Shown here piece by piece: positions 2 to 15,154 of a DNA stretch of 23,374 nt. The translations under genes and the position numbers were made by a program. Position 1 is the first letter of the stretch. Each line of letters opens with the position of its first letter. This stretch comes from a virus (Duplodnaviria > Heunggongvirae > Uroviricota > Caudoviricetes). The notes under the pieces were generated by a model. It did not search any database. It was not told where the DNA came from and saw nothing but the letters and a program-made list of their open reading frames with translations. The DNA is taken from positions 73,023 through 96,396 of IMG/VR virus record IMGVR_UViG_3300032156_000002; one strand, written 5' to 3'.

Positions 2-3000
2 AATTCCCGCGAGTACAAGATTACGCGGTTTGGGTTACACAAATTCGCGAGCGGCGACAAGACGTACACCGATATGTGGACGGCGGTTCTCGCAATCGGG
101 AAGGGCTTGGCGAAGTACCCCGAGGCCATGTCGTGGAGAACGGCCCCGGACACGGTGCTCGTGTTCTTCCCGCTCGCGTGGGAAGTCCTCGCCATGCCAA
201 TAGACGTGGCCGCCGGACTTGACCCCGAGTACGCGACCGTCCTTGACATGCCCGAGATTATCGAGCGCGGCGGCCCCGGCTCAGGCCACTTCGGCCACGA
301 GGGCAGGCCCGGAGAGGTGGGCGGGAGTCTACCCGACGAGGGCGGCCTCTTGACCGGGGAACCGGGCGATGCGCGGGTCAACACGTTTTTCACTAAACGC
401 GGACTCGGAATTGATGTAACACCCGAAGATGCCTTGGGCCTTTGGGAGACATGCAAGGAACTGAACGGCGGCGTGCGCACCGGTCTCACGGACAGCGTTC
501 TTCCTCCCGGCTCTCCACAGATTGAAACGGACGAGGTCTGGATTGCGCCCAACGGCGAGGCCGTTCGGGTTATCTTGGGCGGGCACGAGGGTGTCGCTCA
601 CGAGGCTCTTGAGCACTACTACGCAAAGGATGTCTCGAAATTCCTGCCCTTCCTTGACTTGAACATCAAGCAGACCGACCCGGTGTTACACGAAGGGAGA
701 GAGGTCGGTCGGCTCACATTCGTCGCGCCGAACGAAGAGGAGACGCTTGTCGCGACGGCATACATCGACCGGGATGGGAAGTTCCGGTGGAAGATAAAGG
801 AGTCGAGTTTTGACTTCGCACCAGAGCCTCTGCCGCCCACGGCGAGCAAGGAGGAGATTGTCCTCGCCAATCCGAAACACACGGTCTATGGCATCGTGGG
901 CGGCGTCGGCGCAGAGGAGTTGTTTATGGCGCACGGTTTCCTGCGCGTCAGCCGCGGCGGACAACCATCGGGGCCTATGTCAACGGCCGGTTTCTCGTGG
1001 GACGCCACCTTGACTCCAACTGAGCCGCAGAGGCGAGCGGTTATGCGCGTTGCCAAGGCCATAGAGGACGCTGGCGGCGGATACATGTGGGAGACTGCGA
1101 ATAGCAACAACAAGCATCCCGCCTCTGAGGGTATCTATTCGGCCCTTTTGGGGAACGCAAGCCGCGCTCGGAACGAACTACGGACTGCCCTGACGGGACA
1201 GCCGCACTTTCCCGTGGTCGAGCGGTCCGCGTGGCCGGACTGGGCACTGGCGCTCGTGATGCGCGGCGGGCCGGGAAGCGGTCACTTTGGGCATGAGGGT
1301 AGGCCGGGCGAGGTCGGCGGGAGTGCGCCGAGCGGAGGATTATCAATCGGAGCACCGGGGACCTACGGCACCGAGCAGGTCGTGCGAGGGCGATGGAATC
1401 CAAATGCCAACCTTGCCTACCACTGGACCGACTCCGAGGGACTGGAAGGAATCCTCGACAAGACAGAATGGGAGGCGGGAAGTCTCACGGTCAATCCCGG
1501 CTATCGGTATGTCGGGCATGGTCCACGTCAAGACCGTTTCGCGCTCGTGTTCGACCGCTCCATGATACGGGAGGACAAGGCAGAGGCGACGGTGCCATGG
1601 AGTGAGTGGGAGATACTCTCGCGCGATGATGTTCCCTTGATGCCGGGAATCAACGAACCGCAGGCGTTTCTTGGCTTCGGCGTTCGCACCCAGCGCGATG
1701 CTGATATTCTGCGCCGCAAGATTATCAAGTTCTATGATGACCCCGACTGGGGCACGATGTGGCCAATCCACATCGTGCCCGACGTGACACCGGTCCATCT
1801 GCGCTCAATGGTCGAGCGCGGCGGCCCCGGCTCGGGCCACTTTGGGCACGAAGGCCGCCCCGGTCAGGTCGGGGGAAGCATGCCCGGCGACGGATTATCA
1901 ACCGGCGAGCCGGGCGAGGACGTGAGCGCACGAGAGGCCAAGGTCCGCAAAAAACTCGACGCCATCATCAAGCGGACGAACGCGAAGATTGAGCGCATCA
2001 AGACCGCCGACAAGGCCGGTGCCATGCGCGTATTCTTCCGAGGGTTGGACAAAGAGCGCAACCGCTACGCGGGTGGCACGCACGTCAAGGGCTGGTGGAA
2101 ACTTGGCCGCGAGGCGATGGTCAAAATCATCTTCCAGTATCGCGCCTTTGCGGAGGCGAAGTACGAGAAGATGCCCCAAGTGGCCGACCTTTACGCGGGC
2201 GACACTTACAACAAAGACCGCATCAAGTACCTGCGCGAGCGGCTGGACCTCCTTGCCAGAATCGAGTATGACCTGCGGCACGTAGAGTCTGACCCGGACA
2301 TGATTGTAGAGAATGCGAGGAGTATCCAAACAGCCTTCAATGCCATGCGCGAGGTTGGCTATTTCCTTGCGCTTGATGCCGAACTCGCGCTTGACAACGA
2401 GGGGCACAAGTTCAACTGGCGCGACTCGGACCCAACGGTCGAAATGACCGTAGACGGCGAAACTATCAAGGTCGAACCGGCGGTGTACGCACGTGCCGCC
2501 GATATACGAATCGACTGGGACCCCAAGCCTGCGGAGACGCAGATTCTCGAGGCGCGGGCCGATGGATTCGCCGAGGCAATCCATACACGCATCGAGGCGA
2601 TGAGACCATTCACGGATGGACTTGTCAACGCCGCGAACGATGCGGTTCCGGGCCGTGTCCTCGTGGGTCGGGACAACGCCAGAGATGCGCTGAACGCCGT
2701 CGCCGCCGAGATTTACAACGCCGAGGCTCGCCCGAAGGTGTCCGCCATCCAGAGCCGCATCGGCATGGGCGAGTCCGTGCCGCAGGCTGACTTGGACTAC
2801 GTTGCCGACTGGACGGTCAAGTTCAAGGCATACGATTCGGCCATGAGAGACCTTGACCTTGCGCGGCGCGACGTGAGGACATGGCAGTTAGGCGGTCTAT
2901 CGTCGGAGTTGTGGAAAGACTACGGCGGACCCGAGGACACCATCCAACTCACGAGAGGCGTTGACACCGGCGACAGAATGATTGGCGGGGTTGAGGAAAG

Positions 3001-3562
3001 GAACATGAGGCTGGCGGATAAATTCCTGTCAGCCGTTGTCTCGCCCGATGTCGAACCCGGCATGGAGGTCAAGGTCTATCGGTTGGTCGAATCGGACCCG
3101 GAGCCGGACCGCGGCTTCTATCGGTCGAGCGACAGCGGCGACCTGCTCTCCGGCATCTACTTGCCCGACGGTGCGGATGCGACCACCTTCGTTCACGAGT
3201 ACGGGCATCATCTTGAGCAACACAACGCGGGATTGCACGAAGCGACCCGCGCATTCTTGTTTGAGCGAAGCAAGGGTTTGCCCATCGAGCACTATCCTGT
3301 GCCACCCTTCCGGCCGGACGAACAAGGCTACCTCACAGCCTTCCACCTGATACCCGACGACTACGCGGGCAAGGTCTACGGACCAGATGCCCTGCACTCG
3401 GGCGCGACCGAGGTCCTGTCACAGGGCCTTCACCGATTGAAAGAGGACCCGGTTTACTTCTCCGAGGGCGACCGCGACTGGTTTGACTTCACGGTGCTCT
3501 CCCTGACCGGCGACCTAGAGAGGGACATGCAATGGCTACGTCAACACATCCCTACGCCCTGA
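2..3562 (+). CDS. Large modular phage head-associated (polyvalent/MuF-effector-like) protein, 5'-truncated; three tag repeats, a putative ART-fold module and a C-terminal HExxH zincin module
   Basis: The frame is open from base 2 (NSREYKITRFG...) through ATG 74, so the true start lies outside the window. RGGPGSGHFGHEGRPG(E/Q)VGGS occurs at 266, 1262 and 1817. YHWT...SLT...EWE spans 1418-1612, and FVHEYGHHLE (HExxH) is at 3194-3208. The gene sits upstream of the prohead protease and capsid genes. Confidence 0.75.
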   Translation, partial: NSREYKITRFGLHKFASGDKTYTDMWTAVLAIGKGLAKYPEAMSWRTAPDTVLVFFPLAWEVLAMPIDVAAGLDPEYATVLDMPEIIERGGPGSGHFGHEGRPGEVGGSLPDEGGLLTGEPGDARVNTFFTKRGLGIDVTPEDALGLWETCKELNGGVRTGLTDSVLPPGSPQIETDEVWIAPNGEAVRVILGGHEGVAHEALEHYYAKDVSKFLPFLDLNIKQTDPVLHEGREVGRLTFVAPNEEETLVATAYIDRDGKFRWKIKESSFDFAPEPLPPTASKEEIVLANPKHTVYGIVGGVGAEELFMAHGFLRVSRGGQPSGPMSTAGFSWDATLTPTEPQRRAVMRVAKAIEDAGGGYMWETANSNNKHPASEGIYSALLGNASRARNELRTALTGQPHFPVVERSAWPDWALALVMRGGPGSGHFGHEGRPGEVGGSAPSGGLSIGAPGTYGTEQVVRGRWNPNANLAYHWTDSEGLEGILDKTEWEAGSLTVNPGYRYVGHGPRQDRFALVFDRSMIREDKAEATVPWSEWEILSRDDVPLMPGINEPQAFLGFGVRTQRDADILRRKIIKFYDDPDWGTMWPIHIVPDVTPVHLRSMVERGGPGSGHFGHEGRPGQVGGSMPGDGLSTGEPGEDVSAREAKVRKKLDAIIKRTNAKIERIKTADKAGAMRVFFRGLDKERNRYAGGTHVKGWWKLGREAMVKIIFQYRAFAEAKYEKMPQVADLYAGDTYNKDRIKYLRERLDLLARIEYDLRHVESDPDMIVENARSIQTAFNAMREVGYFLALDAELALDNEGHKFNWRDSDPTVEMTVDGETIKVEPAVYARAADIRIDWDPKPAETQILEARADGFAEAIHTRIEAMRPFTDGLVNAANDAVPGRVLVGRDNARDALNAVAAEIYNAEARPKVSAIQSRIGMGESVPQADLDYVADWTVKFKAYDSAMRDLDLARRDVRTWQLGGLSSELWKDYGGPEDTIQLTRGVDTGDRMIGGVEERNMRLADKFLSAVVSPDVEPGMEVKVYRLVESDPEPDRGFYRSSDSGDLLSGIYLPDGADATTFVHEYGHHLEQHNAGLHEATRAFLFERSKGLPIEHYPVPPFRPDEQGYLTAFHLIPDDYAGKVYGPDALHSGATEVLSQGLHRLKEDPVYFSEGDRDWFDFTVLSLTGDLERDMQWLRQHIPTP
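266..328 (+). repeat. Gly/His tag repeat copy 1 (RGGPGSGHFGHEGRPGEVGGS), followed by GLLTGEPG
   Basis: Direct translation in the frame of the large ORF. Confidence 0.95.
1262..1324 (+). repeat. Gly/His tag repeat copy 2 (RGGPGSGHFGHEGRPGEVGGS), followed by GLSIGAPG
   Basis: Direct translation; identical to copy 1 in amino acids with many synonymous differences. Confidence 0.95.
1817..1879 (+). repeat. Gly/His tag repeat copy 3 (RGGPGSGHFGHEGRPGQVGGS), followed by GLSTGEPG
   Basis: Direct translation. Confidence 0.95.
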
Positions 3563-3807
3563 GAGACCCGCAGAACGGCGAGATTTTCAATCTAGCCGGT
3601 GGACTGTGGACCGGCGAGAATCAGGAGGTCGTTGGCCTCCTGAACGTCTGGTTTGCCCGTTCCCGGCTGTATTTGGACGACCCCGGTAGGTATTTGCCCG
3701 ACCCGGACTGGCAGTTGGCGCAGGACGCCGCGCAGGAAATGGGCTTCGAAGTGGTTTCCGGTCCGCCCCCGGAAACGGGAGTGCCGCCGGAGGGGAACAT
3801 TTACTGA
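3532..3807 (+). CDS. Small acidic hypothetical protein (91 aa), candidate partner/immunity protein of the zincin module
   Basis: GAGAGGGA RBS at about 3518-3525 and ATG 3532. It overlaps the last 31 nt of the large ORF. The function is inferred from position only. Confidence 0.6.
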   Translation: MATSTHPYALRDPQNGEIFNLAGGLWTGENQEVVGLLNVWFARSRLYLDDPGRYLPDPDWQLAQDAAQEMGFEVVSGPPPETGVPPEGNIY

Positions 3808-3811
3808 CGGC

Positions 3812-3907
3812 CTAGAAGTTCGTCCGGGCGAATTCGCCGAAATACCTGACGGCGGCGTGGTCATAGGCGAGCGCGGCGGCTTCGGGGGTCTCAAAATAGC
3901 CGAGTAG
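3812..3907 (-). pseudogene. C-terminal remnant of an AP2 DNA-binding domain (HNH-AP2 homing endonuclease relic)
   Basis: The minus strand reads LLGYFETPEAAALAYDHAAVRYFGEFARTNF*, matching the AP2 C-terminal consensus (LG.F.T.EEAA.AYD.AA..(Y/L)FGEFA..NF). The N-terminal AP2 strands and a plausible start are missing. Confidence 0.8.
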
Positions 3908-3918
3908 TCCGTTTGTGT

Positions 3919-3960
3919 TAGGCAGACTGTTCCGCGAGCGGTAGGATAAGACAGCGGAGG
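3919..3960 (+). promoter_or_regulatory. Possible sigma70-type promoter plus RBS for the 3966 gene
   Basis: TAGGCA (3919-3924), a 17-bp spacer and TAGGAT (3942-3947), each a 4/6 match to consensus. GGAGG at 3956-3960 precedes GTG 3966. Confidence 0.3.
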
Positions 3961-3965
3961 TATCT

Positions 3966-4898
3966 GTGCCCGGCTCTGTGACCGTGCCTAGTACGCTCAA
4001 AGGACACGCCGCCGACATCTGGCGAGCCGCATTCCTTGCGTCTTGCGAGGGCACGTGCAAAGGGCGCGAGGACAAAGACTCCTGCGCCGCGTCCATTGCG
4101 TGGACCGCGGTGAAGGAAAATTACAAGAAGGGCGACTCGGGGGAATGGGTCGCCAAAGGCGGGCCTATGACGGAGCAGACGAAATTGATTGAACGCAAGG
4201 AATTCTCGGCGGGCCAGCGGGGCAAGTTGGCTGAGGAAAACAAGGCCATGCCCGGTGGCGGCTATCCCATCGAGAGCGAGCAGGACCTTCGCAATGCCAT
4301 TCATGCGATTGGCCGTGCGAAGAATCGCGCCATGACTATCCGGCACATCATGCGTCGCGCCAAGGCCCTCGGGTTGATGAAACTCATCCCGGCGGGTTGG
4401 GTGTCCGAGGTGAAGTCGCTGGCGCAGATTATCCGCGCCGTTCCCGGCGACATCCTCGTTCGCCGCATCGCGCGCGAGCACGAGGCGACCTACGATGTCG
4501 AGTTGACTCAGCGTGGCCTCGCCAACACCGAGGCCGTTCGTCCTGCCTGCTTTGATAGCGAAGTCTGGCGTGCTCTGCCCGCGAGCGAACGCACCTACGG
4601 CGCGCTTCTGCGTCGGCGCTTCATCTCGCGGCAGTACCACGAAGCCGTGGACCAGATGCTTGAGAACGGGTGGGAAGCCCGGAAGAATCCGAATCGCCCG
4701 GAGGAGTTCATCTTCCGTGGCTACGTGAATACGCCCGACGGCGCGGTGTTCGTGCGCGACATTCTTGTGCGCCGCCGCGGTACGGGCACATGGTACCCGC
4801 GCGAGGTGAGCCGCGGGGCCAGCGCCTCGACCTCCATCATGCTCGACCCGCAGGAAATTCGGTATCGCGGCCCCGAAATCGAAATCCCGGTTCACTGA
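3966..4898 (+). CDS. Multi-domain head-region protein: N-terminal ChaB-like domain, a DUF6582-like phage head module and an unknown C-terminal domain
   Basis: The ChaB-like pattern is HAADIWRAAF...AASIAWTAVKENYKK...GEWV. FSAGQRGKLAEENKAMPGGGYPIESEQDLRNAIHAIGRA...HIMRRAKALG...IPAGW resembles a module recurrent in phage head genes. GGAGG RBS at 3956. Confidence 0.65.
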   Translation: MPGSVTVPSTLKGHAADIWRAAFLASCEGTCKGREDKDSCAASIAWTAVKENYKKGDSGEWVAKGGPMTEQTKLIERKEFSAGQRGKLAEENKAMPGGGYPIESEQDLRNAIHAIGRAKNRAMTIRHIMRRAKALGLMKLIPAGWVSEVKSLAQIIRAVPGDILVRRIAREHEATYDVELTQRGLANTEAVRPACFDSEVWRALPASERTYGALLRRRFISRQYHEAVDQMLENGWEARKNPNRPEEFIFRGYVNTPDGAVFVRDILVRRRGTGTWYPREVSRGASASTSIMLDPQEIRYRGPEIEIPVH

Positions 4899-4905
4899 GG
4901 TGCGT

Positions 4906-5457
4906 ATGACCCCAACAGAGTCGGACCTCGTTCGTGGCGCGCGAGAAATTCTTGACATCTCCGCTTTGATTCTCCGCGGCGGGGCGGGGAGTGGGCACTT
5001 CGCTCACAAGGGGGTCCCCGGCCAAAGGGGCGGCAGTGCGCCGGGGCCGGGAGGCGGCACGGTTTCGGAGGCAGGCGGAACGCACAAGGGGGTCCCCGGC
5101 CAACGGGGCGGCAGTGCGCCCGGACCAATGGGACTCGGAACGAGTTGGCAAGGGGGAAAGTCATTCGCCCACACCCTGACGAACAAGTCATACGACTCTT
5201 GGGTGACGATGCTCTCCAAAAAGCCGCTCGCGAAGTTGCGGGCTTGGCAGGATGTTGTCTCTGGGCAGATGGAACTTCTGCGAAAGAACGGTGACAAGTC
5301 TCCGGGCGAGATTGCTTCGATAGAGCAGATGGTCTGGGAACTCGCCCTCACCGACGCGGTGGCACGCAAGGCATTTGCGAACGAGTTTCCGGCAGGCAGT
5401 TTCGGGCTTCCGGCGTGGCTGAAAGAATGGCGAGCGAAGGCGGAGGGGGCGCAGTGA
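4906..5457 (+). CDS. Tag-bearing small cargo protein 1 (183 aa): N-terminal leader and tag followed by an unknown helical domain
   Basis: GAGGTG RBS at 4897-4902 and ATG 4906. The leader DLVRGAREILDISALILR is followed by GGAGSGHFAHKGVPGQRGGS and a partial second copy. Confidence 0.8.
   Translation: MTPTESDLVRGAREILDISALILRGGAGSGHFAHKGVPGQRGGSAPGPGGGTVSEAGGTHKGVPGQRGGSAPGPMGLGTSWQGGKSFAHTLTNKSYDSWVTMLSKKPLAKLRAWQDVVSGQMELLRKNGDKSPGEIASIEQMVWELALTDAVARKAFANEFPAGSFGLPAWLKEWRAKAEGAQ
4975..5037 (+). repeat. Gly/His tag repeat copy 4 (variant RGGAGSGHFAHKGVPGQRGGS)
   Basis: Direct translation. Confidence 0.9.
5005..5120 (+). repeat. 38-bp direct repeat (5005-5042 and 5083-5120, 1 mismatch) duplicating HKGVPGQRGGSAP
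   Basis: cacaagggggtccccggccaa(a/c)ggggcggcagtgcgcc is present twice, 78 bp apart. Confidence 0.95.
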
Positions 5458-6446
5458 CGGACAGACTTCTCCGCGGCGCGCTTGAAATCCTTGACCTGTC
5501 GGCCGTCATTTTTCGCGGCGGACCCGGCAGTGGCCATTTTGGCCACAAGGGTCGCCCCGGCGAGGTCGGGGGAAGTGCGCCGGGCATGGGCGGATTGTCA
5601 ACCGGCGAGTCGGGCAAGACATATCCGGTGAAGTGGACCCCGACGGGGCGTGGCGTGGGCGCTGGCGTTTCTCACGAGAGTGATGACGGGAGGTTTGTCA
5701 TTCACGGAACCGGCGCTGGGCACGGAATGAATTATGTGTTGCAGGACAAGAACGCCAGCAAACCGGATGAGGCGGCGGGTCGCTTTGCCACATTGGCCGA
5801 GGCCAAGGACGCCGCCCAGCGCATCGCCAACGAGACAGAGGGATACACGACCGGCGAAGCAACTGGCAAGTATCCGGCCAACTTCAATCCCGAGACCGGC
5901 CTCTACAAGAACAAGGTCATTTACGTCCGCAAGAGCAACAGCCACAAGTGGTTTTGGGTGAACATCGCCAACGACCAAGCGGACGTGGACCGATTGATGC
6001 CCGGCATTCTGCGTGACTACAAGACCGCAGAGGGCAGGCAGTGGCAAATCAAGGTCGTGGATGTCGAGTGGGAAGGCGGCGATGTCTCCAAGATTCCGTA
6101 CTCGCTGACCGGCCCGGAACTCGAACGGTTCGCCAGCAAGGGATTGTCAACCGGAGAACCCGCCGGAGACTACGGTCGCCGTGAGGTCGTGAAGGTCAAC
6201 CTCGGGACGCTGAATGGAAAGCGCGTCTACATCGAACATCCCCTGCGCACCTCGACGGAGGAAGGGAACTGGCCGAATGACACGCTTCACGTCGGTGGCA
6301 GTAGCATACTACTGGATACCCAGCGCATGACGGAGTCCCTGTATCGCCTGATGCCAGCGGCCTACATGGCGGGCAATGGAAAGCCAGCCAGCGAGTGGCG
6401 CTGGTTCATTGACGAGGCGCGCCGCCGGGGATTGCTCCGTGGCTGA
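5454..6446 (+). CDS. Tag-bearing cargo protein 2 (330 aa): same leader and tag followed by several small unknown modules
   Basis: The GTG start overlaps the upstream TGA (GTGA) and follows a GGAGGGGG RBS. The leader DRLLRGALEILDLSAVIFR is followed by GGPGSGHFGHKGRPGEVGGS. GLSTGE occurs at 5592 and again at 6141. Confidence 0.8.
   Translation: MTDRLLRGALEILDLSAVIFRGGPGSGHFGHKGRPGEVGGSAPGMGGLSTGESGKTYPVKWTPTGRGVGAGVSHESDDGRFVIHGTGAGHGMNYVLQDKNASKPDEAAGRFATLAEAKDAAQRIANETEGYTTGEATGKYPANFNPETGLYKNKVIYVRKSNSHKWFWVNIANDQADVDRLMPGILRDYKTAEGRQWQIKVVDVEWEGGDVSKIPYSLTGPELERFASKGLSTGEPAGDYGRREVVKVNLGTLNGKRVYIEHPLRTSTEEGNWPNDTLHVGGSSILLDTQRMTESLYRLMPAAYMAGNGKPASEWRWFIDEARRRGLLRG
5514..5576 (+). repeat. 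Gly/His tag repeat copy 5 (RGGPGSGHFGHKGRPGEVGGS), followed by GLSTGESG
   Basis: Direct translation. Confidence 0.95.
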
Positions 6447-8187
6447 GAAGGAAACCTTTGGCGGCGCGAACTACAACGCCGAAACGGGCGACAGCGGGCG
6501 CAAGTGCGACGAGTGTGTGTACTTCGCCGCGGACCGCTGTGACAAGTGGAAACGCAAGGTGGCACCGGACGGCATTTGCAATGCCTACTCGCCACGACCG
6601 GAGGGCAGACTATCCATGAGCGAAGCGATTATCAACCCCGAGTCACCCGAGGCCATGCCGATGCGGTCCACGGACCTCTACATCACGCGCGTGTCTCTTG
6701 ACCCGCAGACACGCCAGCGCCGCTGGTATGCGACAGCGAGCGGGACGAAGAAAGACCTGTACGGTGACAACATGACCGTCATGCTGTTCAAGGACTTTAT
6801 CAAGCGCATCGAGCGCGGTGACGAAGCCCCCGAGCCGTTCAAGTCGCGCTCGTGGAACGGCGGCCTGCCGTACTTGTCGGTGGCTCACTACCTTGACCTT
6901 GACGGGTTTGGAGTGGCGGGCAAGACTGACCAAGTTTGGGCCGACGGCGACATTTTCAAGGCCAAAGGCACGTTCTCGGATAGCACCGTGGGACGAGCCG
7001 CCTACGAGGCGGTCAAGCGCGACATCGAGAGCGGAAAGCCGCCGAGCGAGAAAGTCAGGATTTCCATTGCGTTCATTGACTGGGGCCACGGGCACGAGGG
7101 CGCAGGTGGCGTCTTTGCCCGAAAGAGCCTTCTGGACAGGTGCCCGCACTGCGATAGCGGGCTGGGGAAGAAATCCTACCGGGAAGGGCAGATAGTGCAT
7201 TTGGCCTTGACCCGGAGGCCAGCCTACCCCGATACTGAAATCCAACTAGAGGAGCGAGCCATGACTACCCGACTGGAAGATGCCTCAAGCATTGTGGGCG
7301 ACGAACTCGCCAAGGACCTCGAAAAGCGAAGTGGCGCTCTCACAGAGCGGGCCGAGCAGGCTACTCCGGGGGTTGTCGTGGTCCGCGACGATTCTAGCGC
7401 CGCCGCCGAGAAGGACAAGGCCGAGGCCAAGCCCGAGGTCGAAACCTCCGGCTCCGCGACCGTGGAGGAAATGTCCATGGCCAAGGACGGATTCGGCACC
7501 ACGCTCGACGAGGCCGAAGCCTTCCTCGCGCGCTCGAAGGAAAGTCCGATTCTAGACGGCTGGGGAATTCTCGCCGCCGTTATCAAGAACGCATCCGCCC
7601 GGCCCGCGGCCGAGCGCGAGTCGCTCGTCGAAAAGGCGTTGGTTGAATTCCGCGACCGGCTCGATGTGGTCAACCTCGACACGCTGACAGCCGTGCGCGC
7701 ATTCCTCGACAAGGCACCCGCGCCCGTTGCGCCGTCTGCGCCCGGCGCGCCCGTTGTTCCCGCGCCCGCACCTCACGTGCTCGATGAGGGAATGGAGAAT
7801 CTCAGGGCGGTCTATGACGAGGCCCTTGGCACCGCCAATGCCACCGCGCAGGAGAAGTTGGCCGCAATTCAGCCTGCGATGAATTCGCTGGCCGAGGTCA
7901 TCATGCGCAGTGTCGAACCGCAGGCTCCCGCCGCCGAGGCGGCCTCCGCCGGTGAAACGGTGGAACTCACGAAAGCCGTACAAGCACTCACGGGGGTTGT
8001 CGCTACCCTCGTTGGTCGAGTTGATGGAATCGAAAAGCGGAGTGTGACGACACCGCGCGCCCCCGAGGCTCCGGCCCGGCGCGGCATTCGCATGGTGCCA
8101 GCCTTACCCGCGTCCGTGACTCGTTCCGCGACCGGCAAATTGTCAATCCGTGACATTGCCCGCAGGAGCGTGGGACTCACTGAATAA
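6439..8187 (+). CDS. Prohead (capsid maturation) protease-scaffold fusion with an N-terminal 4-Cys HiPIP-like domain
   Basis: HK97/assemblin-type protease pattern: ASGTKKDLYGD, candidate catalytic His (SVAHY, 6886), candidate catalytic Ser (RISIAF, 7063) and HLALTRRPAYPDTEI. An Ala/Pro/Glu-rich helical scaffold-like C-terminus follows, directly upstream of the MCP. GTG 6439 overlaps the upstream stop; alternative RBS-preceded ATGs lie at 6616, 7261 and 7477. Confidence 0.75.
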   Translation: MAEKETFGGANYNAETGDSGRKCDECVYFAADRCDKWKRKVAPDGICNAYSPRPEGRLSMSEAIINPESPEAMPMRSTDLYITRVSLDPQTRQRRWYATASGTKKDLYGDNMTVMLFKDFIKRIERGDEAPEPFKSRSWNGGLPYLSVAHYLDLDGFGVAGKTDQVWADGDIFKAKGTFSDSTVGRAAYEAVKRDIESGKPPSEKVRISIAFIDWGHGHEGAGGVFARKSLLDRCPHCDSGLGKKSYREGQIVHLALTRRPAYPDTEIQLEERAMTTRLEDASSIVGDELAKDLEKRSGALTERAEQATPGVVVVRDDSSAAAEKDKAEAKPEVETSGSATVEEMSMAKDGFGTTLDEAEAFLARSKESPILDGWGILAAVIKNASARPAAERESLVEKALVEFRDRLDVVNLDTLTAVRAFLDKAPAPVAPSAPGAPVVPAPAPHVLDEGMENLRAVYDEALGTANATAQEKLAAIQPAMNSLAEVIMRSVEPQAPAAEAASAGETVELTKAVQALTGVVATLVGRVDGIEKRSVTTPRAPEAPARRGIRMVPALPASVTRSATGKLSIRDIARRSVGLTE

Positions 8188-8258: not shown

Positions 8259-9440
8259 ATGACTGAGACCATTGCCCCGGCGCTTGCCGCGGGAGAAAAG
8301 GTAATGAACTTGGGCGAGGGCGAGGCGGCATTCGTGTCGCGCGCCAACGACCCCGTGATGTCGCCCGTGCCCTATGCACGACCGAGCGACTTCGCCGCGC
8401 AGTACCCGACTCCGCTTGACCCGACCGAAATCATCGCCATGTGCGAGGAACTCTCGGTCTGGCAGGCGCTCCCCGAGGAAACCACGGCGCTCTACCAGCA
8501 CACGTGGCGCGAGTTGAACGCTCTGGCCTTCGCGTCCGGGTCATCGTACATCTCGTTCGCGGACGGGAACTGCCCTGAGGAATACGCGCACGACGGGTCA
8601 AACACGACCATCACCCTCAAGAACATCGGCGCAAAAAAGAACCTCAGCGTGTCCGACATCATGCACTCCGCCGCCGTGGCCGCGGCCAATTGGAACGGCA
8701 TCAATCGGCTGGTAGCCCCAATGGCGTCGAGCGAGGGAATGCCCGGTGGTTCGAGCGAGGGGTCCTTCCGGCAGGAATACGTGGCCGACCTGAAGGAAAA
8801 GGAAATCCGGCTGGCCATGACTCTCGTCCTCAATGGATGGGACCGCCTGCTCGTCGCGGGCAATGCCGGAAACAACGCCCTTGAGTTCAGCGGCATCGAA
8901 ACTCTCGTGGCGACCAACTGCGCGAACTACATGGCGGACACCACCTCGGGGTCCTTCAGCGCGCAGGCGTTCGACCGGTTCCTTGCCCGCTCGTGCGCGA
9001 AGCCGACGGTCATCTTCGGGCATCCGCAGGCCATTCAGGAAATGATGATGGCCTACTTCGCCCTCGGCTTCAACGGTTCGCAGGTCGTGAACTTCAGTAC
9101 CGGCGACCGCATCACCCCCGGATTCAACTTCGGCGGGTTCGTGAACACGGGCGTCGGGCGCTTGGGTGTCGTGAGTGACAACAACTTCACCCGTGTCCCC
9201 GCGGGAGCCATCTTCCGCTCGGACCTGTTCGCCCTCCGCATGAATCACAACGGCGTGCCGCTGGTGTTCAAGATTACGCAGATTCCACTCGCGTTGCAGG
9301 ACTTGACCCCCGGATGCACCGCCATCGCCTTCGAAGTGTGGGCAAAGACGGCGCTCATCGTGAAGCACTGTTGCGCTCACAGCCGCTACCGTGGCTTCTT
9401 CACGGGCACCATCACCACGACCTGCCCGGTCATCGGGTAA
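8259..9440 (+). CDS. Major capsid protein (HK97 fold), 393 aa
   Basis: Strong GGAGG RBS at 8246-8250 and ATG 8259. It follows the protease/scaffold gene. EKEIRLAMTLVLNGWDRLLVAGNAGNNALEFSGIETLV fits the HK97 spine-helix 'e..l..G......EFdGl' pattern. A terminator follows. Confidence 0.8.
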   Translation: MTETIAPALAAGEKVMNLGEGEAAFVSRANDPVMSPVPYARPSDFAAQYPTPLDPTEIIAMCEELSVWQALPEETTALYQHTWRELNALAFASGSSYISFADGNCPEEYAHDGSNTTITLKNIGAKKNLSVSDIMHSAAVAAANWNGINRLVAPMASSEGMPGGSSEGSFRQEYVADLKEKEIRLAMTLVLNGWDRLLVAGNAGNNALEFSGIETLVATNCANYMADTTSGSFSAQAFDRFLARSCAKPTVIFGHPQAIQEMMMAYFALGFNGSQVVNFSTGDRITPGFNFGGFVNTGVGRLGVVSDNNFTRVPAGAIFRSDLFALRMNHNGVPLVFKITQIPLALQDLTPGCTAIAFEVWAKTALIVKHCCAHSRYRGFFTGTITTTCPVIG

Positions 9441-9486: not shown

Positions 9487-9529
9487 AGTGGGCGGGGTAG
9501 GCTCCATGCCTCCCCGCCCACTTTCCTTT
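9487..9529 (+). terminator. Rho-independent terminator after the MCP
   Basis: AGTGGGCGGGG-T-AGGC / loop TCCAT / GCCT-CCCCGCCCACT forms a 15-bp stem with a 1-nt bulge, followed by an imperfect T-tract (TTCCTTT). Confidence 0.8.
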
Positions 9530-9619
9530 ATCCCGTCATCGGAGTCCGAGGACCTGCTTGTGTATCCGGTTGGACTGGACGACAATATGGGTGGTTCGAG
9601 CCGCCCGTATGGAGACGAG

Positions 9620-9931
9620 ATGGCACAGCAAATGTGGGATGACGACCTCCCGAAGCAGGACCCCATTACCAACGCCGCTGGCGAAGTGGCAATGAAGTAT
9701 TATCAAGAGATGCAAATTCTTGTCCCTTGCGGCCGCGATGACGGCACCAAGGGACAATACGTTTTTGTGGTCCGTAACCACGTCGCCCTGTCTTGGGTGG
9801 ACCCGCGCGACATTCCCTGTCTGCGCGCCATCCGGGGCGGTTGTTGCGGTAACAGGCGGCCCGGCGTCATTCTCTACGCCAACGCACGCGACGTGGAGTT
9901 GTGGATGGGACAGAAGCCCGGAGAGGATTGA
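9620..9931 (+). CDS. Hypothetical protein (103 aa) with a GGCCG motif
   Basis: GGAGA RBS at 9611 and ATG 9620. The longer ORF-track start at 9488 runs through the terminator. Confidence 0.55.
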   Translation: MAQQMWDDDLPKQDPITNAAGEVAMKYYQEMQILVPCGRDDGTKGQYVFVVRNHVALSWVDPRDIPCLRAIRGGCCGNRRPGVILYANARDVELWMGQKPGED

Positions 9932-9932
9932 G

Positions 9933-10619
9933 ATGCCATCTAAAAAGGCAACGACCAAGAGCAAGGCCGAAGAAAAGAGCGCGAAAGCGACCGTCGTCGG
10001 AGACGCCTATCTCCTGCGCGAGAACATGAACAAAGAGACCATGACGACGGCTCTCATGCAGATGAACGACGAAGAACTGAGAGCGATTGCCGTGGCCGAG
10101 GGATTCGGGTCGCAGAGTTTGAAGAAAGATGAATTCGTGGCGGAAATCGTCTCAAAGTGGCTCTCTAGTTCGACGCCATCGCGCGCCACCCCGCGGCCAG
10201 CACCCGCGAAGCCTGCGAGCAAGGCGAGGCCTGCGCGAGAGCCGAAGGCCAAATCAGGCGTGAGCGCCGTGGCGGTAGCGAGGGGCGAGGGTCCGGCCGC
10301 CGTTGTGGGCAATGCCTATCTCCTGCGCGAGAACATGAGCCGCGACGACATGGCCGACCTCCTCGATAAGATGTCGCGCGAGGAACTTGAGGCCGTTGCG
10401 GTCGCGGAGGGATTTGTCCAAGACGACGCGACAAAAGAGGACCTCGTGGAGGCGATTCTCAATCGCTGGGCGGCGATTCCGTCAGTGACCGTGAACAGAG
10501 GCGGCGTAGTCGGAGACGTGCGGCCCGGCTATGCTCGGGTCTATCCCGAGCCTCCGGCCAATCCCAACACGCCGAGGTCTGCGCGTGTTGGACGCATCTT
10601 TGGCGAGACGGGGAAATAG
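9933..10619 (+). CDS. Protein with two tandem Rho-N/HeH-like helical modules separated by a Lys/Ala/Pro linker (228 aa)
   Basis: GGAGAGG RBS and ATG 9933. VVG(D/N)AYLLRENM...M(N/S)xEEL(R/E)A(I/V)AVAEGF...K(D/E)(E/D)(F/L)V..I occurs twice, with a 25-bp identical stretch at 10005-10029 and 10314-10338. Confidence 0.65.
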   Translation: MPSKKATTKSKAEEKSAKATVVGDAYLLRENMNKETMTTALMQMNDEELRAIAVAEGFGSQSLKKDEFVAEIVSKWLSSSTPSRATPRPAPAKPASKARPAREPKAKSGVSAVAVARGEGPAAVVGNAYLLRENMSRDDMADLLDKMSREELEAVAVAEGFVQDDATKEDLVEAILNRWAAIPSVTVNRGGVVGDVRPGYARVYPEPPANPNTPRSARVGRIFGETGK

Positions 10620-10622
10620 GCC

Positions 10623-11576
10623 ATGACCTATCCGCGTCAGGAGTTTCTCAACTTCCAGCCGGACGAGACGGACAGGTGGAGTGCGGTCGAGCCGGTCCTG
10701 CGGTTCGACGACCTCGCGCCGCGCGACGACAGCCTGCCCATAACGCTCTCCGTTATGATTGCGGCGAACGACTACCGCAAGGCACAGATACTTCGCACCC
10801 TTGAGTGCTTGGCCCGCCAGAAGTTCCGAGACATCGAAGTTCTTGTGGCGCAGATTGGCGGCAATCAGGACCTCGGGGAGGCGTGCGCGAGATTCTTGCC
10901 GTACCTGCGAGTGCGCTTTTTCAAACTCGAACGCGAGGGTTTCGCCGCCGACCCGAGCCGCGGCTTCCGGGCGATGATACCCGAGGCGCAAGGCGACTAC
11001 ATCGCGGCCATGCAGGCCGAGATTATGCTGACCGAGGAGGCGTGCGGTGTGCTGGTACGCTCGATGCGCGACCCGATGCTGGGGTCCACTTTCCATAGTT
11101 GCCTTGACGCTTCGCCGCTTGAGGACTGGTTGAGCAAAGAGAAATTCATCGTCCTGCGCATCGGCTTCCTCGATGGACAATGCCAACAGGCGCTCGACCA
11201 GACGGACTGGCACAGTCACGTCCGAGAAATCGAGCAGATATACTCCTACAACCGGCACGGAGAAGGATTGTCAAACCGCGGCAACACCTTCTGGCGGCCC
11301 GCTATCCATTTCCCGTGGTGGTTCGTCGGTTGCGCGAAGCGCGAAGCGGGCATCTGGAAAGATATGCCCGAGATGCTTGGGCACGCGATGATTGACTTCT
11401 ACTTGATGAACTACCGCATCTCCTACGGCTACGTGGACATTCTGCCGCCGGGGTTGTACGGCTACCATCAGTACCACTTTCGCACGGCTGTCGGCATGAA
11501 GGACGAGGAGCCGACCATGCGCCTTGCGTTACAGGAAAGGGCGCGAAGGGAGAGGGGAGGCGAGCAGGTCGAATGA
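10623..11576 (+). CDS. GT-A fold (GT2-like) glycosyltransferase with an atypical metal-binding motif
   Basis: LSVMIAANDYRKAQILRTLECLARQKFRDIEVLV is a GT2 N-terminus. GDYIAAMQAEIML occupies the position where DxD is expected. Confidence 0.65.
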   Translation: MTYPRQEFLNFQPDETDRWSAVEPVLRFDDLAPRDDSLPITLSVMIAANDYRKAQILRTLECLARQKFRDIEVLVAQIGGNQDLGEACARFLPYLRVRFFKLEREGFAADPSRGFRAMIPEAQGDYIAAMQAEIMLTEEACGVLVRSMRDPMLGSTFHSCLDASPLEDWLSKEKFIVLRIGFLDGQCQQALDQTDWHSHVREIEQIYSYNRHGEGLSNRGNTFWRPAIHFPWWFVGCAKREAGIWKDMPEMLGHAMIDFYLMNYRISYGYVDILPPGLYGYHQYHFRTAVGMKDEEPTMRLALQERARRERGGEQVE

Positions 11577-12409
11577 GGATTGCCATTGCTGGTTTCCGGG
11601 GGAGGCTTGGGTCGTGGCTGTTCGAATCTGGCGGACCCGACATCTTTGCGCTGGACGTGGACTGTGCGGACCCGCATGCGGTTGGTGAGTGCATCCAAGA
11701 GTCCAAGCCCGATGTGATTATCAATTGCGTTTCGTGGACCAAGGTGAACGAGGCGGAGGACCCGGCCAACCGGGAGGCCGTGATTCGCGCGAACGTTCGT
11801 GCACCCGGCGTCCTGCGGCGCGCCTTCGGCGGCTACCTCATCCAACTCTCCTCGGGTTTCGTGTTCCCCGGCACGCCCCTGCCGCGCGTCATCGAGTACA
11901 ACGAGAACGCCAAGACCAACCCCGTCAACTTCTACGGATTTTCAAAACTGGGGGGCGAGGCGGCGGCCCGGCTAGGCAATGGGCCGACACTGGCGGTCCG
12001 AACGCTCGACCTGTTCGGGCCGGTGGCCATTCCCGGCAAAGAGGATTTCGTGCAGGGCGTGGTGCGCATCCTGCGGTCCGGTCAACCATTTCCCACGCGC
12101 CCGTTCTACATGCGCCAGCCGACGTACATCCCTGAACTTGCGCGGGTATTGCTCGGCATTGCCAGATGTCAGAATCCAATCACGGGGATTCTTCACCTTG
12201 CCGGGTGGCCCGCCACGGATGCGCGCCACTGGGCCGAGGCCGTGGCCGATGCCTATGGTCTGCCCAAGGATGGCATCTGCGGAGGTTATGAGCCGAAGGT
12301 GCCCCGCCCGTTCGGCGCGGTCCTGAACGTCAGCAAGGCGAAGCACCTCGGAATCAATATGATGTTCCCGACGGACGCTCTCAATATCATGGCGCGAGGT
12401 CAACAGTGA
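11573..12409 (+). CDS. rmlD: RmlD-like NDP-4-keto-6-deoxyhexose reductase (extended SDR)
   Basis: Motifs MRIAIAGFRGRLG, IINCVSWTKVNEAE, LIQLSSGFVF, PVNFYGFSKLGGE (YxxxK) and QPTYIPELA. ATGA overlap with the upstream gene. Confidence 0.8.
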   Translation: MRIAIAGFRGRLGSWLFESGGPDIFALDVDCADPHAVGECIQESKPDVIINCVSWTKVNEAEDPANREAVIRANVRAPGVLRRAFGGYLIQLSSGFVFPGTPLPRVIEYNENAKTNPVNFYGFSKLGGEAAARLGNGPTLAVRTLDLFGPVAIPGKEDFVQGVVRILRSGQPFPTRPFYMRQPTYIPELARVLLGIARCQNPITGILHLAGWPATDARHWAEAVADAYGLPKDGICGGYEPKVPRPFGAVLNVSKAKHLGINMMFPTDALNIMARGQQ

Positions 12410-13110
12410 AGTTCAGTGTCGTGCTCCTTACCTTCAACAGCCCCAGCCGCTTCGAGAAGCGCATGGACGAACTGGCCTACTGGACGGCTAACCGCGACGC
12501 GGAGATTGTGCCCGTGCTCAACGGACCCGTGGACCGCGAGTACAGCCTTTTGCTTGCGCTGGCCATCTCGCGGAGCGCACACGAGCCGGGCGCGCCCTTC
12601 ATCCGACCCATCGCCATTCCGATAAACCACGGCTTCGCCGGAGGCATGAACATCGGCGCGCGCTCGACCGCGGGCGAGATTATCATTCTCCTCAGCGATG
12701 ATGTGCGCATTGCCGGTGACTTCCTTACCCCAATCGAGGCGACCCTGAGGCGCGGCTCGCTGTCCATCGTCTCCAAGACCATTGTCAACTTTCCGGGCGG
12801 ATGGAATCAGTTTGGCGATGTTGTTGTGGCCTACCCGGACGGGTCACTGGTGGCCATGCGCAAGTCAATATGGCAGGCACTCGGCGGTTTCGACGAGCAA
12901 TTCACACCCGCGGGTTTCGAGGACGTGGACCTCGGGTATCGGGCCGCGCAACTCGGCTTCCCGCTGGTTGCACTTCCCAACCTGCCGGTGGACCATAGCG
13001 CGCCGGGCCAGTCTGCGCCCTACAACAAAGAACGGTTCGACCGATGTGTTCGGATGAAGGCGTTGTTCGCCGCGAAGTACGGATTAGAGAACGTGCCTGC
13101 GGTTCCGTAG
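12406..13110 (+). CDS. GT2 family glycosyltransferase
   Basis: Motifs KFSVVLLTFN, NHGFAGGMNIGA, IIILLSDDV, GGFDEQFTPAGFEDVDLGYRA. GTGA overlap. Confidence 0.85.
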   Translation: MKFSVVLLTFNSPSRFEKRMDELAYWTANRDAEIVPVLNGPVDREYSLLLALAISRSAHEPGAPFIRPIAIPINHGFAGGMNIGARSTAGEIIILLSDDVRIAGDFLTPIEATLRRGSLSIVSKTIVNFPGGWNQFGDVVVAYPDGSLVAMRKSIWQALGGFDEQFTPAGFEDVDLGYRAAQLGFPLVALPNLPVDHSAPGQSAPYNKERFDRCVRMKALFAAKYGLENVPAVP

Positions 13111-13119
13111 GAGAGGGTC

Positions 13120-14052
13120 ATGCCTGCCAAGCGAAAGATGCGCATTGCGTTCGCGATGATATATTATCCGGTAGCGATGGGGCGTTACTTCCTTGAGGCC
13201 CTGCGCCGCCGGAGAGATGTCGAGTTGTGGACGTTTGGCCCGTACACGGCGCAATGGATTCCGTGGGACGGCGGAATGAACCTGCCCACGCGCTACGTGT
13301 TCCGGCCAGACATGCCGTTATCAATGCCGCCATTCATCTCCTACGGCTGGGCCGAGAACTCGAAGCCGTGGGAGCCGGACCTGTGGCTGGAAGCAAATGC
13401 GGCTATGCAAACCGAAGGCCGACCCAAAGGCAAGTACGCGGTGGTAGGAACCGACCCGCACGTTCTCGACTACACGCCCCAACGTCGGGCGGCGGACTTC
13501 TTCTTTGGGATGCAGGGGCCGTACCTCAAGCCGGGCGACATCTGGCTTCCCTATGGCTACGACCCCCTTTGGCATTCGTTCTCGCCGGTTCCCGCGGCGC
13601 TCCGCACGAACGATGCGGCACTCATCGGCCTCCACTACGAAAAACGCACGCAACTTGTGGACCGACTGCGGGCACTCGGACTGACCGTGCACTATTCCAT
13701 CGGCCCGGCCTATGAGGACGCGCGCGCCATCTACCATGACACGCGGGTTGGCCTCGACTGGGCCAGCCTGCAAGACCTGAATGCGCGCGCCTTCGAACTT
13801 ATGGCCCTCGGGTGCGCGCCGCTTCTTTCGCGCGTGCCGGACCTTGGGACACTGTTCGTGGAGGGCCGCGATTACGAGGGATTCGATACTCTTGATGAAG
13901 CCGTGGCCAAGGCGGTTGCTCTTGCGCGCGACCCCGCCCGCGTGGACGAACTTGCGCGCAATGCTCGGCGCGCGGTCGAGCCGCACACATGGGACGCTCG
14001 CGTGCGCGACATCCTGCACAAGACTGGGCTATTGCCCGAGGCGGAGTGGTGA
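13120..14052 (+). CDS. GT-B glycosyltransferase, CgeB/Glyco_trans_1_2-like
   Basis: LNARAFELMALGCAPLLSRVPDLGTLFVEGRDY...HTWDARVRDIL matches this family's C-terminal pattern. GGAGAGG RBS. Confidence 0.8.
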   Translation: MPAKRKMRIAFAMIYYPVAMGRYFLEALRRRRDVELWTFGPYTAQWIPWDGGMNLPTRYVFRPDMPLSMPPFISYGWAENSKPWEPDLWLEANAAMQTEGRPKGKYAVVGTDPHVLDYTPQRRAADFFFGMQGPYLKPGDIWLPYGYDPLWHSFSPVPAALRTNDAALIGLHYEKRTQLVDRLRALGLTVHYSIGPAYEDARAIYHDTRVGLDWASLQDLNARAFELMALGCAPLLSRVPDLGTLFVEGRDYEGFDTLDEAVAKAVALARDPARVDELARNARRAVEPHTWDARVRDILHKTGLLPEAEW

Positions 14053-14471
14053 CACAACTTCCATCCGAAGGTTACAGAGTCAATCGGGTGAAACATCGCG
14101 GCGACCCCAAGAGTGCTGTTCTTGAATCTGGCGACGCGGTGACGAAGCAAGACCGTGTTTTCTTCCGCATTCCCATCGCGATGGGTCGCTTCAGCGCGCT
14201 GGACTGGGTATCCATCAAGTGCGCAGAGTACCACGGGGAACATTTCGTCTACCTTGACCCCCTCTACGAGAACGACAAGGACACGGGCAGGGGGCATTGG
14301 TTCGCGGCATGCACCTGTGGAAGTCCGGCGGTGTTGATTGGCCCGACGGATGCGCAGATTGAGGACGCGGGCGTAGAGGAGCAACTCTTGGTGTGCTTCC
14401 TGTATCACAAGACTCTGACCGAAACGGGCTTTGGCCGCCACGCAACGACGGGAGAAAGGCCGTGGGCATGA
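14049..14471 (+). CDS. Hypothetical protein (140 aa) with Cys/His clusters
   Basis: GTGA overlap upstream and ATGA overlap downstream. Contains HWFAACTCGSP...VCFLYH. Confidence 0.6.
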   Translation: MTQLPSEGYRVNRVKHRGDPKSAVLESGDAVTKQDRVFFRIPIAMGRFSALDWVSIKCAEYHGEHFVYLDPLYENDKDTGRGHWFAACTCGSPAVLIGPTDAQIEDAGVEEQLLVCFLYHKTLTETGFGRHATTGERPWA

Positions 14472-15154
14472 AAGACTACGCGCGATTCGACAAGTACCTC
14501 GACGACCTCTCGCAGGATGTCCGGCCCCAGCCGGTGGACGATGGGCATAAATACTGGGCGACCATCGGGTTCCGCACGATGCTCGCGCAGATTCCAGAGC
14601 ACGAGCGGGGCCAAAGGCGTTGCCTCGATGTCGGATGCGGCGAGGGCTTCATGGAGCCGGTCATTGCCGCCGAGGGCTACCAGTGGACCGGCGCAACTAT
14701 TGGGCAGGACGGCATAGATGCCATCGCGCGGGGGATGAATGTCCAGTACGCCGACATGACTTTCCTGCCGGTTGAGGACCACTACTTTGACCTCATTTTT
14801 GCACGGCACGTTCTTGAGCACAGTCCGTTCCCCGTCATCACCTTGATGGAGTGGAGACGCATCTGCAAGGGCTACCTCATTCTCATTGTTCCCTGCCCCG
14901 ACTACTGGGAGTGGTACGGCCGCAATCACTACGCGATGGCGAACGTCGTCCAGTTGCGTTGGTGGCTCCGCCGGTCTGGCTGGCACGTGATGCACGAGTC
15001 GACTCTCAGCACAACCGACGACGAATTCCTGCTCATGTGGCGGCAGACGCCGCACCCGCAGATGGGCAACCCCGGCCCGGCGGCCCGCTTCCCCGAGGAC
15101 AAGACAGTTGAGTACCGCTTGCTCTGCAAGGCGAGCCTCGAGGTCGTCGAATGA
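14468..15154 (+). CDS. Class I SAM-dependent methyltransferase
   Basis: Motif I CLDVGCGEG, plus ADMTFLP and FDLIFARHVLEHSP. ATGA overlap. Confidence 0.85.
   Translation: MKDYARFDKYLDDLSQDVRPQPVDDGHKYWATIGFRTMLAQIPEHERGQRRCLDVGCGEGFMEPVIAAEGYQWTGATIGQDGIDAIARGMNVQYADMTFLPVEDHYFDLIFARHVLEHSPFPVITLMEWRRICKGYLILIVPCPDYWEWYGRNHYAMANVVQLRWWLRRSGWHVMHESTLSTTDDEFLLMWRQTPHPQMGNPGPAARFPEDKTVEYRLLCKASLEVVE

Follow-up and report, generated by a model that had tools for sequence, protein, structure and literature searches.

Why does an uncultured tailed phage repeatedly place one 20-residue glycine/histidine peptide in front of the enzyme modules that it encodes between its portal and capsid genes? We set out to answer this for a window of 23,374 nucleotides, the whole stretch of DNA analysed here, which is the 3′ end of a 96,396-bp virus record (IMG/VR IMGVR_UViG_3300032156_000002). 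The initial annotation, made from sequence alone, had noted five full copies and one partial copy of the peptide, each preceding a different domain, and this observation proved to be correct. A six-frame search showed that the pattern R-GG(P/A)GSGHF(G/A)H.G(R/V)PG..GGS starts at window positions 266, 1262 and 1817 within one ORF (2-3562), at 4975 (ORF 4900-5457) and at 5514 (ORF 5415-6446), whereas no copy was found in another frame or on the other strand. The Ser codons of GSG in these copies are TCA, AGC, TCG, AGT and AGT, as had been claimed. The partial copy at 5083 is a near-identical 78-nt in-frame tandem duplication of the second half of the tag, so unlike the other copies it is recent at the DNA level. 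The features of the region are as follows.

2..3562 (+), C-terminal 1,186 aa of a 1,721-aa polyvalent cargo protein (P0001) whose ORF starts upstream of the window; it carries five tags in all, three of them in the window, and has no Pfam family at E<=0.1
266..328 (+), tag copy (R + GGPGSGHFGHEGRPGEVGGS)
1262..1324 (+), tag copy
1817..1879 (+), tag copy
3194..3211 (+), HExxH motif (HEYGHH) of the last module, a probable zincin-like metallopeptidase
3966..4898 (+), ChaB-domain protein without a tag (Pfam PF06150, E 1.3e-8); its position next to the protease gene is conserved in relatives, and ChaB is found fused to protease homologues
4906..5457 (+), stand-alone cargo gene P0002, with a 24-aa leader, the tag (4975-5037), the duplicated half-tag (5083-5115) and a 114-aa cargo
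5427..6446 (+), stand-alone cargo gene P0003, with a leader similar to that of P0002, the tag (5514-5576) and a 290-aa cargo; the start may instead be GTG at 5454
6376..8187 (+), prohead protease P0006 (predicted assemblin/T4 gp21 fold, aa ~100-300) fused to a scaffold-like, Ala/Pro/Glu-rich C-terminal half; the probable start is GTG at 6439
8259..9440 (+), major capsid protein (MCP) of SU10 type (ESM Atlas 0.98, SU10_MCP PF17236), with a candidate maturation site after a conserved ‘FVSR’ about 28 residues from the start

We next asked how the tag is distributed over the complete virus record. The record holds 16 full copies in six ORFs, all on the + strand and all between the portal gene and the protease/MCP genes; 11 of the 16 are internal to their proteins. 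TerL and a portal carrying a MuF-like PHROG lie directly upstream of the tagged genes, and the protease and MCP lie directly downstream. Eleven residues are invariant among the 16 copies, and pairs of copies differ at 9.0 of 21 codons synonymously and at 4.2 non-synonymously. Arg precedes GG in 5 of 5 window copies and in 15 of 16 genome copies. All-against-all BLASTP showed that the 17 modules headed by the copies are mutually unrelated, with the one exception that the P0002 cargo is 44% identical over 108 aa to a module of the upstream 607-aa protein; the first modules of two polyproteins carry no tag. The upstream ORFs contain LigT/2H and Zeta-toxin domains. The zincin-like assignment of the last module of the large ORF rests on its HExxH motif, together with a PHROG 33618 hit at aa 1050-1164 and an ESM Atlas feature similarity of 0.95 to zincin-like metallopeptidase, ATLF and M90 clusters, the latter being a lead only. 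Apart from one PHROG of unknown function, Pfam and PHROG searches gave nothing for P0001, P0002 or P0003, and phmmer against PDB gave nothing for P0001, P0006 or P0007.

The tag is widespread, and 4,338 protein clusters matched it. Thirteen positions are at least 96% conserved over 336 tags. In 202 tagged ORFs from 80 viral contigs, the median spacing between tags is 239 aa, the last tag lies a median of 273 aa before the ORF end and almost never within 60 aa of it (one tag, in the prophage of the cultured Clostridiales bacterium CCNA10, AP018533.1, lies 11 aa from a C-terminus), and the first tag lies within 80 aa of the upstream stop in 136 of the 202 ORFs. In stand-alone genes the tag often follows a leader of 5-35 residues, and leaders can be as short as 5-14 aa. 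In 20 of 20 records with a detectable TerL, the tags lie downstream on the same strand, the nearest being mostly 2-9 kb away, although in two records the tags are spread over about 38 kb. Synonymous sites are scrambled within genomes, since third positions of Gly codons agree at 0.365 against 0.301 for the codon-usage control, indicating selection at the protein level. Among cultured phages (INPHARED), tblastn with a tag segment found nothing, probably because of low-complexity masking, blastn gave only chance hits, and the MCP had no tblastn match. Searches of the literature with motif strings returned no paper describing the peptide.

The residue just before GG behaved differently from the rest of the tag. 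The initial annotation had stated that every full copy starts right after an Arg, but this is not a general property, as across the 336 tags the residue is K in 30%, R in 24%, D in 13% and L in 12%, with E and N also represented; Arg is specific to this lineage. The residue is 0.85 identical within contigs and 0.17 between contigs, whereas positions -12 to -4 are only about 0.1 identical even within contigs; as synonymous sites are scrambled, the fixation of the residue within a phage reflects selection. Of 148 independent proteins with at least three tags, 111 have the same residue before every GG, and each residue class has its own P4-P2 pattern.

Given that the residue is fixed within a phage but differs between phages, we compared its class with the head proteases of 38 tag-bearing records. 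P0006 itself was modelled with AF2 (pLDDT 81); Foldseek top hits of the model were T4 gp21 and then herpesvirus proteases, and structural alignment (VIA) gave Z 10.7 with an rmsd of 2.8 Å over 139 of 164 residues of T4 gp21 (5jbl_B), the next hits being herpesvirus proteases at Z 5-6. P0006 has no Pfam family at E<=0.01, and the S77 model PF03420 found nothing in the record G000, so that P0006 represents a separate, unnamed sequence family with 134 homologues. In 27 homologues a His, a Ser and two further His residues are invariant, an observation made from the alignment without superposition on the gp21 catalytic triad. The P0006-type protease occurs in 5 of 6 R-class records and 0 of 32 others. 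Pfam S77 occurs in 2 of 2 long E-class records and 0 of 36 others. DUF2213 matches strongly in 11 of 11 D-class records and weakly in 4 of 4 L-class records, and is absent from E, K and R records. DUF2213 also has the gp21/assemblin fold (Z 8.4), but hhalign of the P0006 family against DUF2213 was not significant (probability 2%), and the link between them rests on fold only. Peptidase_S78 matched 0 of the 38 records, S78_2 matched only one K-class record clearly and Mu-like_Pro gave one weak hit, and for most K-class records no protease family was identified. E-class tags are preceded by (L/I/M)-x-E in several lineages, and L/I-x-E is the published T4 gp21 cleavage motif (PMC9026906). When three further E-class proteins were looked up in their contigs as a check on this class, two were found to lie after a lambda-like terminase and portal, and none of the three contigs has an annotated protease. 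In addition, an N-terminal alignment of five R-class relatives showed that the MCP has a variable N-terminus followed by a conserved (F/L)(V/I)xR|AxDP, the same signature as that of the tags.

Together, these data are best explained, with a probability of roughly 0.55, if the front edge of the peptide is where the phage’s own prohead protease cuts. In this view the region is the cargo part of a phage head module, ordered TerL, portal, polyvalent and stand-alone cargo genes, prohead protease-scaffold and capsid protein, and each cargo module is preceded by a composite signal consisting of a short lineage-specific P-side stretch (here a hydrophobic V/I, x, Arg), an invariant GG that starts the universal 20-residue peptide GGPGSG(H/N)FGHxGRPGxVGGS, and a Gly/Ser/Ala/Pro-rich spacer. 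The assemblin-fold protease would cut between the lineage-specific residue and GG (X|GG), dividing polyproteins into modules of about 240 residues and removing the short leaders of stand-alone cargo proteins, so that each released module would begin with the universal peptide. What our analysis establishes is the anatomy of the tagged genes, protein-level selection on the peptide, its wide distribution, its linkage to head genes, the genome-specific fixation of the residue before GG and the co-variation of that residue with the protease family, while the cleavage itself, the packing of the cargo in the capsid and its ejection, and any role of the peptide in loading, ejection or activation are inferred, there being no proteomic or biochemical evidence of cleavage or encapsidation. 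The association between residue class and protease is confounded by phylogeny, because each class may be one or a few clades. Furthermore, T4-fold proteases characterised so far cut after Glu, whereas this genome would need an Arg-specific one, and a cleavage site needs only a few residues, which leaves the invariance of 20 residues downstream unexplained. A complex prediction of the protease domain with a tag segment scored 0.25, under the mark of 0.32, with the tag partner modelled at pLDDT 32, and weighs neither for nor against the model.

The initial annotation had proposed a ‘tag-and-load’ system, in which a viral polyprotein is cut by the prohead protease into units sharing the same N-terminus and the peptide routes polyprotein-derived and stand-alone cargos into the head or through ejection. 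This interpretation is partly supported: the tagged ORFs are polyvalent-type cargo proteins in the head module, a prohead protease does lie next to them and the comparative data favour a cut immediately before GG, but the Arg rule is not a general property, the first modules of two polyproteins carry no tag, and the routing role remains a hypothesis. That the peptide is mainly a capsid-targeting or ejection signal, docking each cargo on a head component or threading it out through the portal with cleavage secondary if it occurs, is a doubtful but possible alternative. The tag heads modules, is kept at the N-terminus of stand-alone cargo genes after gene fission, is linked to head genes and is conserved over more residues than a protease site needs, and in T4 the 10-residue CTS loads foreign proteins into heads (PMC9026906). 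However, the tag is identical in phages with unrelated portal families (PF04860, portal_2, portal_3) and unrelated capsid families (SU10_MCP, PF09950), where a docking site on a co-evolving head protein should instead diverge, arguing against a simple lineage-specific docking site; two first modules lack a tag; and the genome-specific residue and P-side pattern look like protease subsites. A further possibility, which we regard as tentative, is that prohead-protease cleavage exposes the 20-mer as a conserved N-terminal header that is then read by a component common to all these phages or their hosts, for example during exit through the portal and tail channel or on arrival in the cell, which would give thousands of unrelated phages one shared plug-in system for delivering effectors.

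It is unlikely that the tags are instead cut by the zincin-like metallopeptidase carried by the polyvalent protein itself, to the exclusion of the prohead protease. The HExxH motif and zincin-like features of the last module, the prediction by Iyer et al. that MPTase domains process polyvalent proteins (PMC5512222) and the occurrence of ATLF and M90 families in other tagged proteins speak in favour of this route, but a relative of this zincin module was found in only one other tagged contig, by phmmer rather than by a systematic survey of zincin distribution, the residue before GG tracks the prohead-protease family in three classes, and the E-class motif matches gp21 specificity. Least likely is that the peptide is only a flexible inter-domain linker or a DNA-level recombination joint for shuffling modules. 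It is Gly-rich, was modelled with low confidence and sits at the borders of modules that are clearly shuffled between phages, but linkers do not keep 13 invariant positions across 4,338 clusters, the tag occurs 5-35 residues from N-termini yet almost never at C-termini, and the synonymous divergence of the copies leaves no long DNA identity for recombination. A ribosome-skipping 2A-like element was rejected because some tags start at residue 6, and a universal cut after a basic residue because only 54% of tags follow K or R. Resemblances to the kinase Gly-loop and to the AT-hook are treated as coincidence.

Polyvalent and internal head proteins are thought to be the first phage weapons to enter a cell, and how they are cut apart and loaded is known only for T4 and a few giant phages. 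Here one short peptide marks the start of cargo modules in more than 4,000 protein clusters, and the residue in front of it appears to report the specificity of each phage’s maturation protease. If this holds, it would give a sequence rule for finding capsid cargo and its mature ends in metagenomes, a natural table of substrate specificities for assemblin-fold proteases and a portable handle for loading proteins into phage heads.

The closest known systems each share part of this arrangement. Phage-type polyvalent proteins (Iyer et al., 2017; PMC5512222) are giant proteins encoded next to portal/MuF genes that string together disparate enzyme modules and are predicted to be packaged, injected and proteolytically processed; the present proteins agree in having several domains of disparate activity (here a 2H phosphoesterase, a Zeta-toxin kinase and a zincin, and elsewhere under the tag ART, GNAT, ParB, PI-kinase and topoisomerase I) and in lying next to head morphogenesis genes. 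That paper contains neither ‘glycine’ nor ‘linker’ and describes no conserved junction peptide, whereas here the junctions carry one invariant 20-mer that stand-alone genes carry too, and the comparative data point to the prohead protease rather than the zincin proposed there. MuF polymorphic toxins of temperate phages (Jamet et al., 2017; PMC5576092) have a variable toxin domain behind a head-associated MuF domain, and some tagged proteins are exactly MuF-tag-ART (P0362), but P0001, P0002 and P0003 have no MuF domain, and that paper mentions no linker, glycine motif, junction peptide or cleavage motif. The T4 CTS of IPI-III and Alt is likewise a short N-terminal leader on otherwise unrelated internal head proteins, removed by the assemblin-fold protease gp21 at a short motif, and in E-class phages the motif before GG is the same L/I-x-E. 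However, the tag has no sequence similarity to the CTS, the P1 residue differs by lineage and is Arg here, the signal also occurs internally, up to 10 times per protein, and in T4 nothing conserved remains on the mature protein, whereas here a universal 20-mer follows the presumed cut. Finally, in giant phages many ejection proteins are cut by a gp21-like protease at a short, lineage-specific motif (phiKZ S/A/G-x-E, SPN3US A-x-E; PMC5694885, PMC7411985), but those sites have few determinants and no conserved P′ side, while here the P′ side is a 20-residue invariant peptide shared across unrelated phages.

To ascertain where the motif occurs, a six-frame search of the window was carried out, and it was found at 266, 1262 and 1817 in one large ORF, at 4975 and 5514 in two further ORFs, and nowhere else in the window. 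The large ORF begins upstream and is 1,721 aa long in all, and the genome, a 96,396-bp IMG/VR virus record of which the window is bases 73,023-96,396, carries 16 full copies in six consecutive + strand ORFs. Eleven residues are invariant among the 16 copies, while pairs of copies differ synonymously at 9.0 of 21 codons and non-synonymously at 4.2, so selection acts on the peptide. In contrast, the partial copy at 5083 is a recent duplication. The 17 modules between tags are unrelated by BLASTP apart from one paralogous pair, in which the cargo of the small tagged gene P0002 (window 5115-5457) is 44% identical over 108 aa to part of the second module of the upstream 607-aa protein (L009:14563-16386, L009 being the stretch that carries that gene). 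The initial annotation had described one Gly/His tag in front of many unrelated cargo modules, and this observation held. In this lineage the tag is followed by a second semi-conserved element, xPxxGLS(T/I)GEPG, which is present in 9 of 16 copies (window 329-370, 1325-1360, 1880-1915 and 5577-5612) and is absent from most other lineages.

We next examined the genetic context of the tagged genes. Upstream lie TerL (Terminase_6N/6C, PHROG 38) and an 808-aa portal with a MuF-like segment, followed by a 1,939-aa protein with a 2H phosphoesterase and six tags, a 638-aa protein with a Zeta-toxin kinase and two tags, a 607-aa protein with one tag, and then the 1,721-aa protein. The order within the window is as follows:
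2-3562 (+), part of the 1,721-aa protein, with tags at 266, 1262 and 1817; the last module has an HExxH motif and zincin-like features.
3966-4898, a ChaB-domain protein just before the small tagged genes; relatives keep it next to the protease gene, and some protease-scaffold homologues carry ChaB as an N-terminal fusion.
4900-5457 (+), the ORF of P0002, with a tag at 4975 and, at 5005-5127, a near-identical 78-nt in-frame tandem duplication that repeats the second half of the tag (HKGVPGQRGGSAPGP).
5415-6446 (+), the second small tagged ORF, with a tag at 5514.
P0006, the next gene, a predicted prohead protease.
8259-8345, the N-terminus of the SU10-type major capsid protein, which follows P0006.
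9488-9931, a 147-aa ORF.
9720-10619, a 299-aa ORF after the capsid gene that overlaps the 147-aa ORF and has a weak PHROG hit to endonuclease VII (E 1.3e-5); the coding assignment here is tentative.
10623-23374, at least 13 co-oriented glycan genes, including GT-A and GT-B glycosyltransferases, RmlD-like, epimerase/dehydratase, nucleotidyltransferase, DegT aminotransferase, methyltransferase and pyruvyl transferase genes; the same arrangement occurs in a relative (L121).
The N-terminal domain of P0006, modelled at pLDDT 81, matches the T4 gp21 prohead protease with Z 10.7 and rmsd 2.8 A over 139 residues, and herpesvirus proteases follow in the hit list. The placement of the tags beside the prohead protease in the initial annotation is therefore correct.

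To determine how widely the tag is distributed, a profile of it was searched against 1.84 billion representative proteins, of which 4,338 matched at E<=0.001 and 812 at E<=1e-10, the best hits carrying 3-10 tags each. IMG/VR yielded 231 confirmed stretches. In 336 unique tags from 80 contigs the consensus is GGPGSG(N/H)FGHxGRPGxVGGS, and 13 positions are at least 96% conserved. Tags also occur in Clostridia genomes, including a prophage head module of a cultured strain. In all 20 records with a detectable TerL, the tags lie downstream on the same strand, although in two nearly complete K-class phage records (G014 and G016, the records of L045 and L022) the tags head many small ORFs spread over about 38 kb and do not form one compact block after the portal gene.

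The position of the tag within ORFs is asymmetric. The median spacing between tags is 239 aa, and the last tag lies a median of 273 aa before the ORF end and almost never within 60 aa of it, whereas in 136 of 202 ORFs the first tag lies within 80 aa of the upstream stop, and leaders can be as short as 5-14 residues. In addition, a relative of this phage encodes similar modules, such as the 2H phosphoesterase, as separate genes, several of which start with a leader plus tag. The tag therefore belongs to the module that follows it. An exception was found in Clostridiales bacterium CCNA10 (AP018533.1; L136:5145-8111), where the prophage portal protein is fused to a NUDIX domain and two tags, the second of which lies only 11 residues before the stop codon, and a separate MuF gene follows.

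We then compared the residue immediately before GG. Across contigs with at least 3 tags, this residue is 0.85 identical within a contig and 0.17 between contigs, while positions -12 to -4 are about 0.1 identical even within contigs, and third positions of invariant Gly codons are near the codon-usage control (0.365 against 0.301). By majority residue the contigs divide into K 15, D 8, R 7, L 7, E 3 and N 2. In an independent set of 148 proteins with at least 3 tags, 111 have the same residue before every GG, and each class has its own P4-P2 pattern. This looks like a specificity determinant read by something encoded in the same genome.

Given this pattern, we set out to determine whether the residue class co-varies with the protease family.
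Table. Protease families in records grouped by the residue before GG (class; family; records of the class with it; other records with it).
R; P0006-type; 5 of 6; 0 of 32.
E; Pfam Peptidase_S77; 2 of 2 (long records); 0 of 36.
D; DUF2213, strong match; 11 of 11; none in E, K, R.
L; DUF2213, weak match; 4 of 4; none in E, K, R.
One N-class record also has a DUF2213 match, while most K-class proteases remained unidentified, and the association between class and protease is confounded by phylogeny. A DUF2213 model (pLDDT 70) best matches T4 gp21 at Z 8.4, followed by herpesvirus proteases. In L158 (record G025) and L156 (record G028) the DUF2213 protease-like domain is itself followed by a tag within the same ORF, so the protease-scaffold protein can also carry the signal. 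E-class tags from several lineages are preceded by (L/I/M)-x-E, which is the published gp21 cleavage motif L/I-X-E (PMC9026906). In R-class relatives the capsid protein has a variable N-terminus followed by a conserved (F/L)(V/I)xR|AxDP, which matches the tag signature; in this phage and four relatives the poorly conserved N-terminus is about 28 aa long and ends in the conserved (F/L)(V/I)xR before the conserved AxDP, a candidate maturation cleavage site.

Together, these data are best read as indicating that the front edge of the tag is a prohead-protease cleavage site, X|GG, in which case polyproteins would be cut into modules, leaders would be trimmed, and the universal 20-mer would remain at each new N-terminus. 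No second site carrying the class signature was seen downstream of the tags inspected. While the copies, their arrangement and the co-variation are shown, the cleavage itself, encapsidation and the role of the universal part are inferences, and a complex prediction, which gave no verdict, weighs neither way. The interpretation in the initial annotation, that the prohead protease cuts the large ORF into units whose shared N-terminus routes them into the head or through ejection, is thus supported only in part. The rival readings are that the peptide is a targeting or ejection signal, that it is processed by the zincin, or that it is a plain linker.

Literature searches with motif strings returned no paper, and the two closest papers (PMC5512222 and PMC5576092) do not mention the peptide. 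With respect to known systems, tagged proteins carry ART, GNAT, Zeta toxin, MuF, ParB, PI-kinase, topoisomerase I and protease domains, and this is the domain repertoire of polyvalent proteins (PMC5512222).
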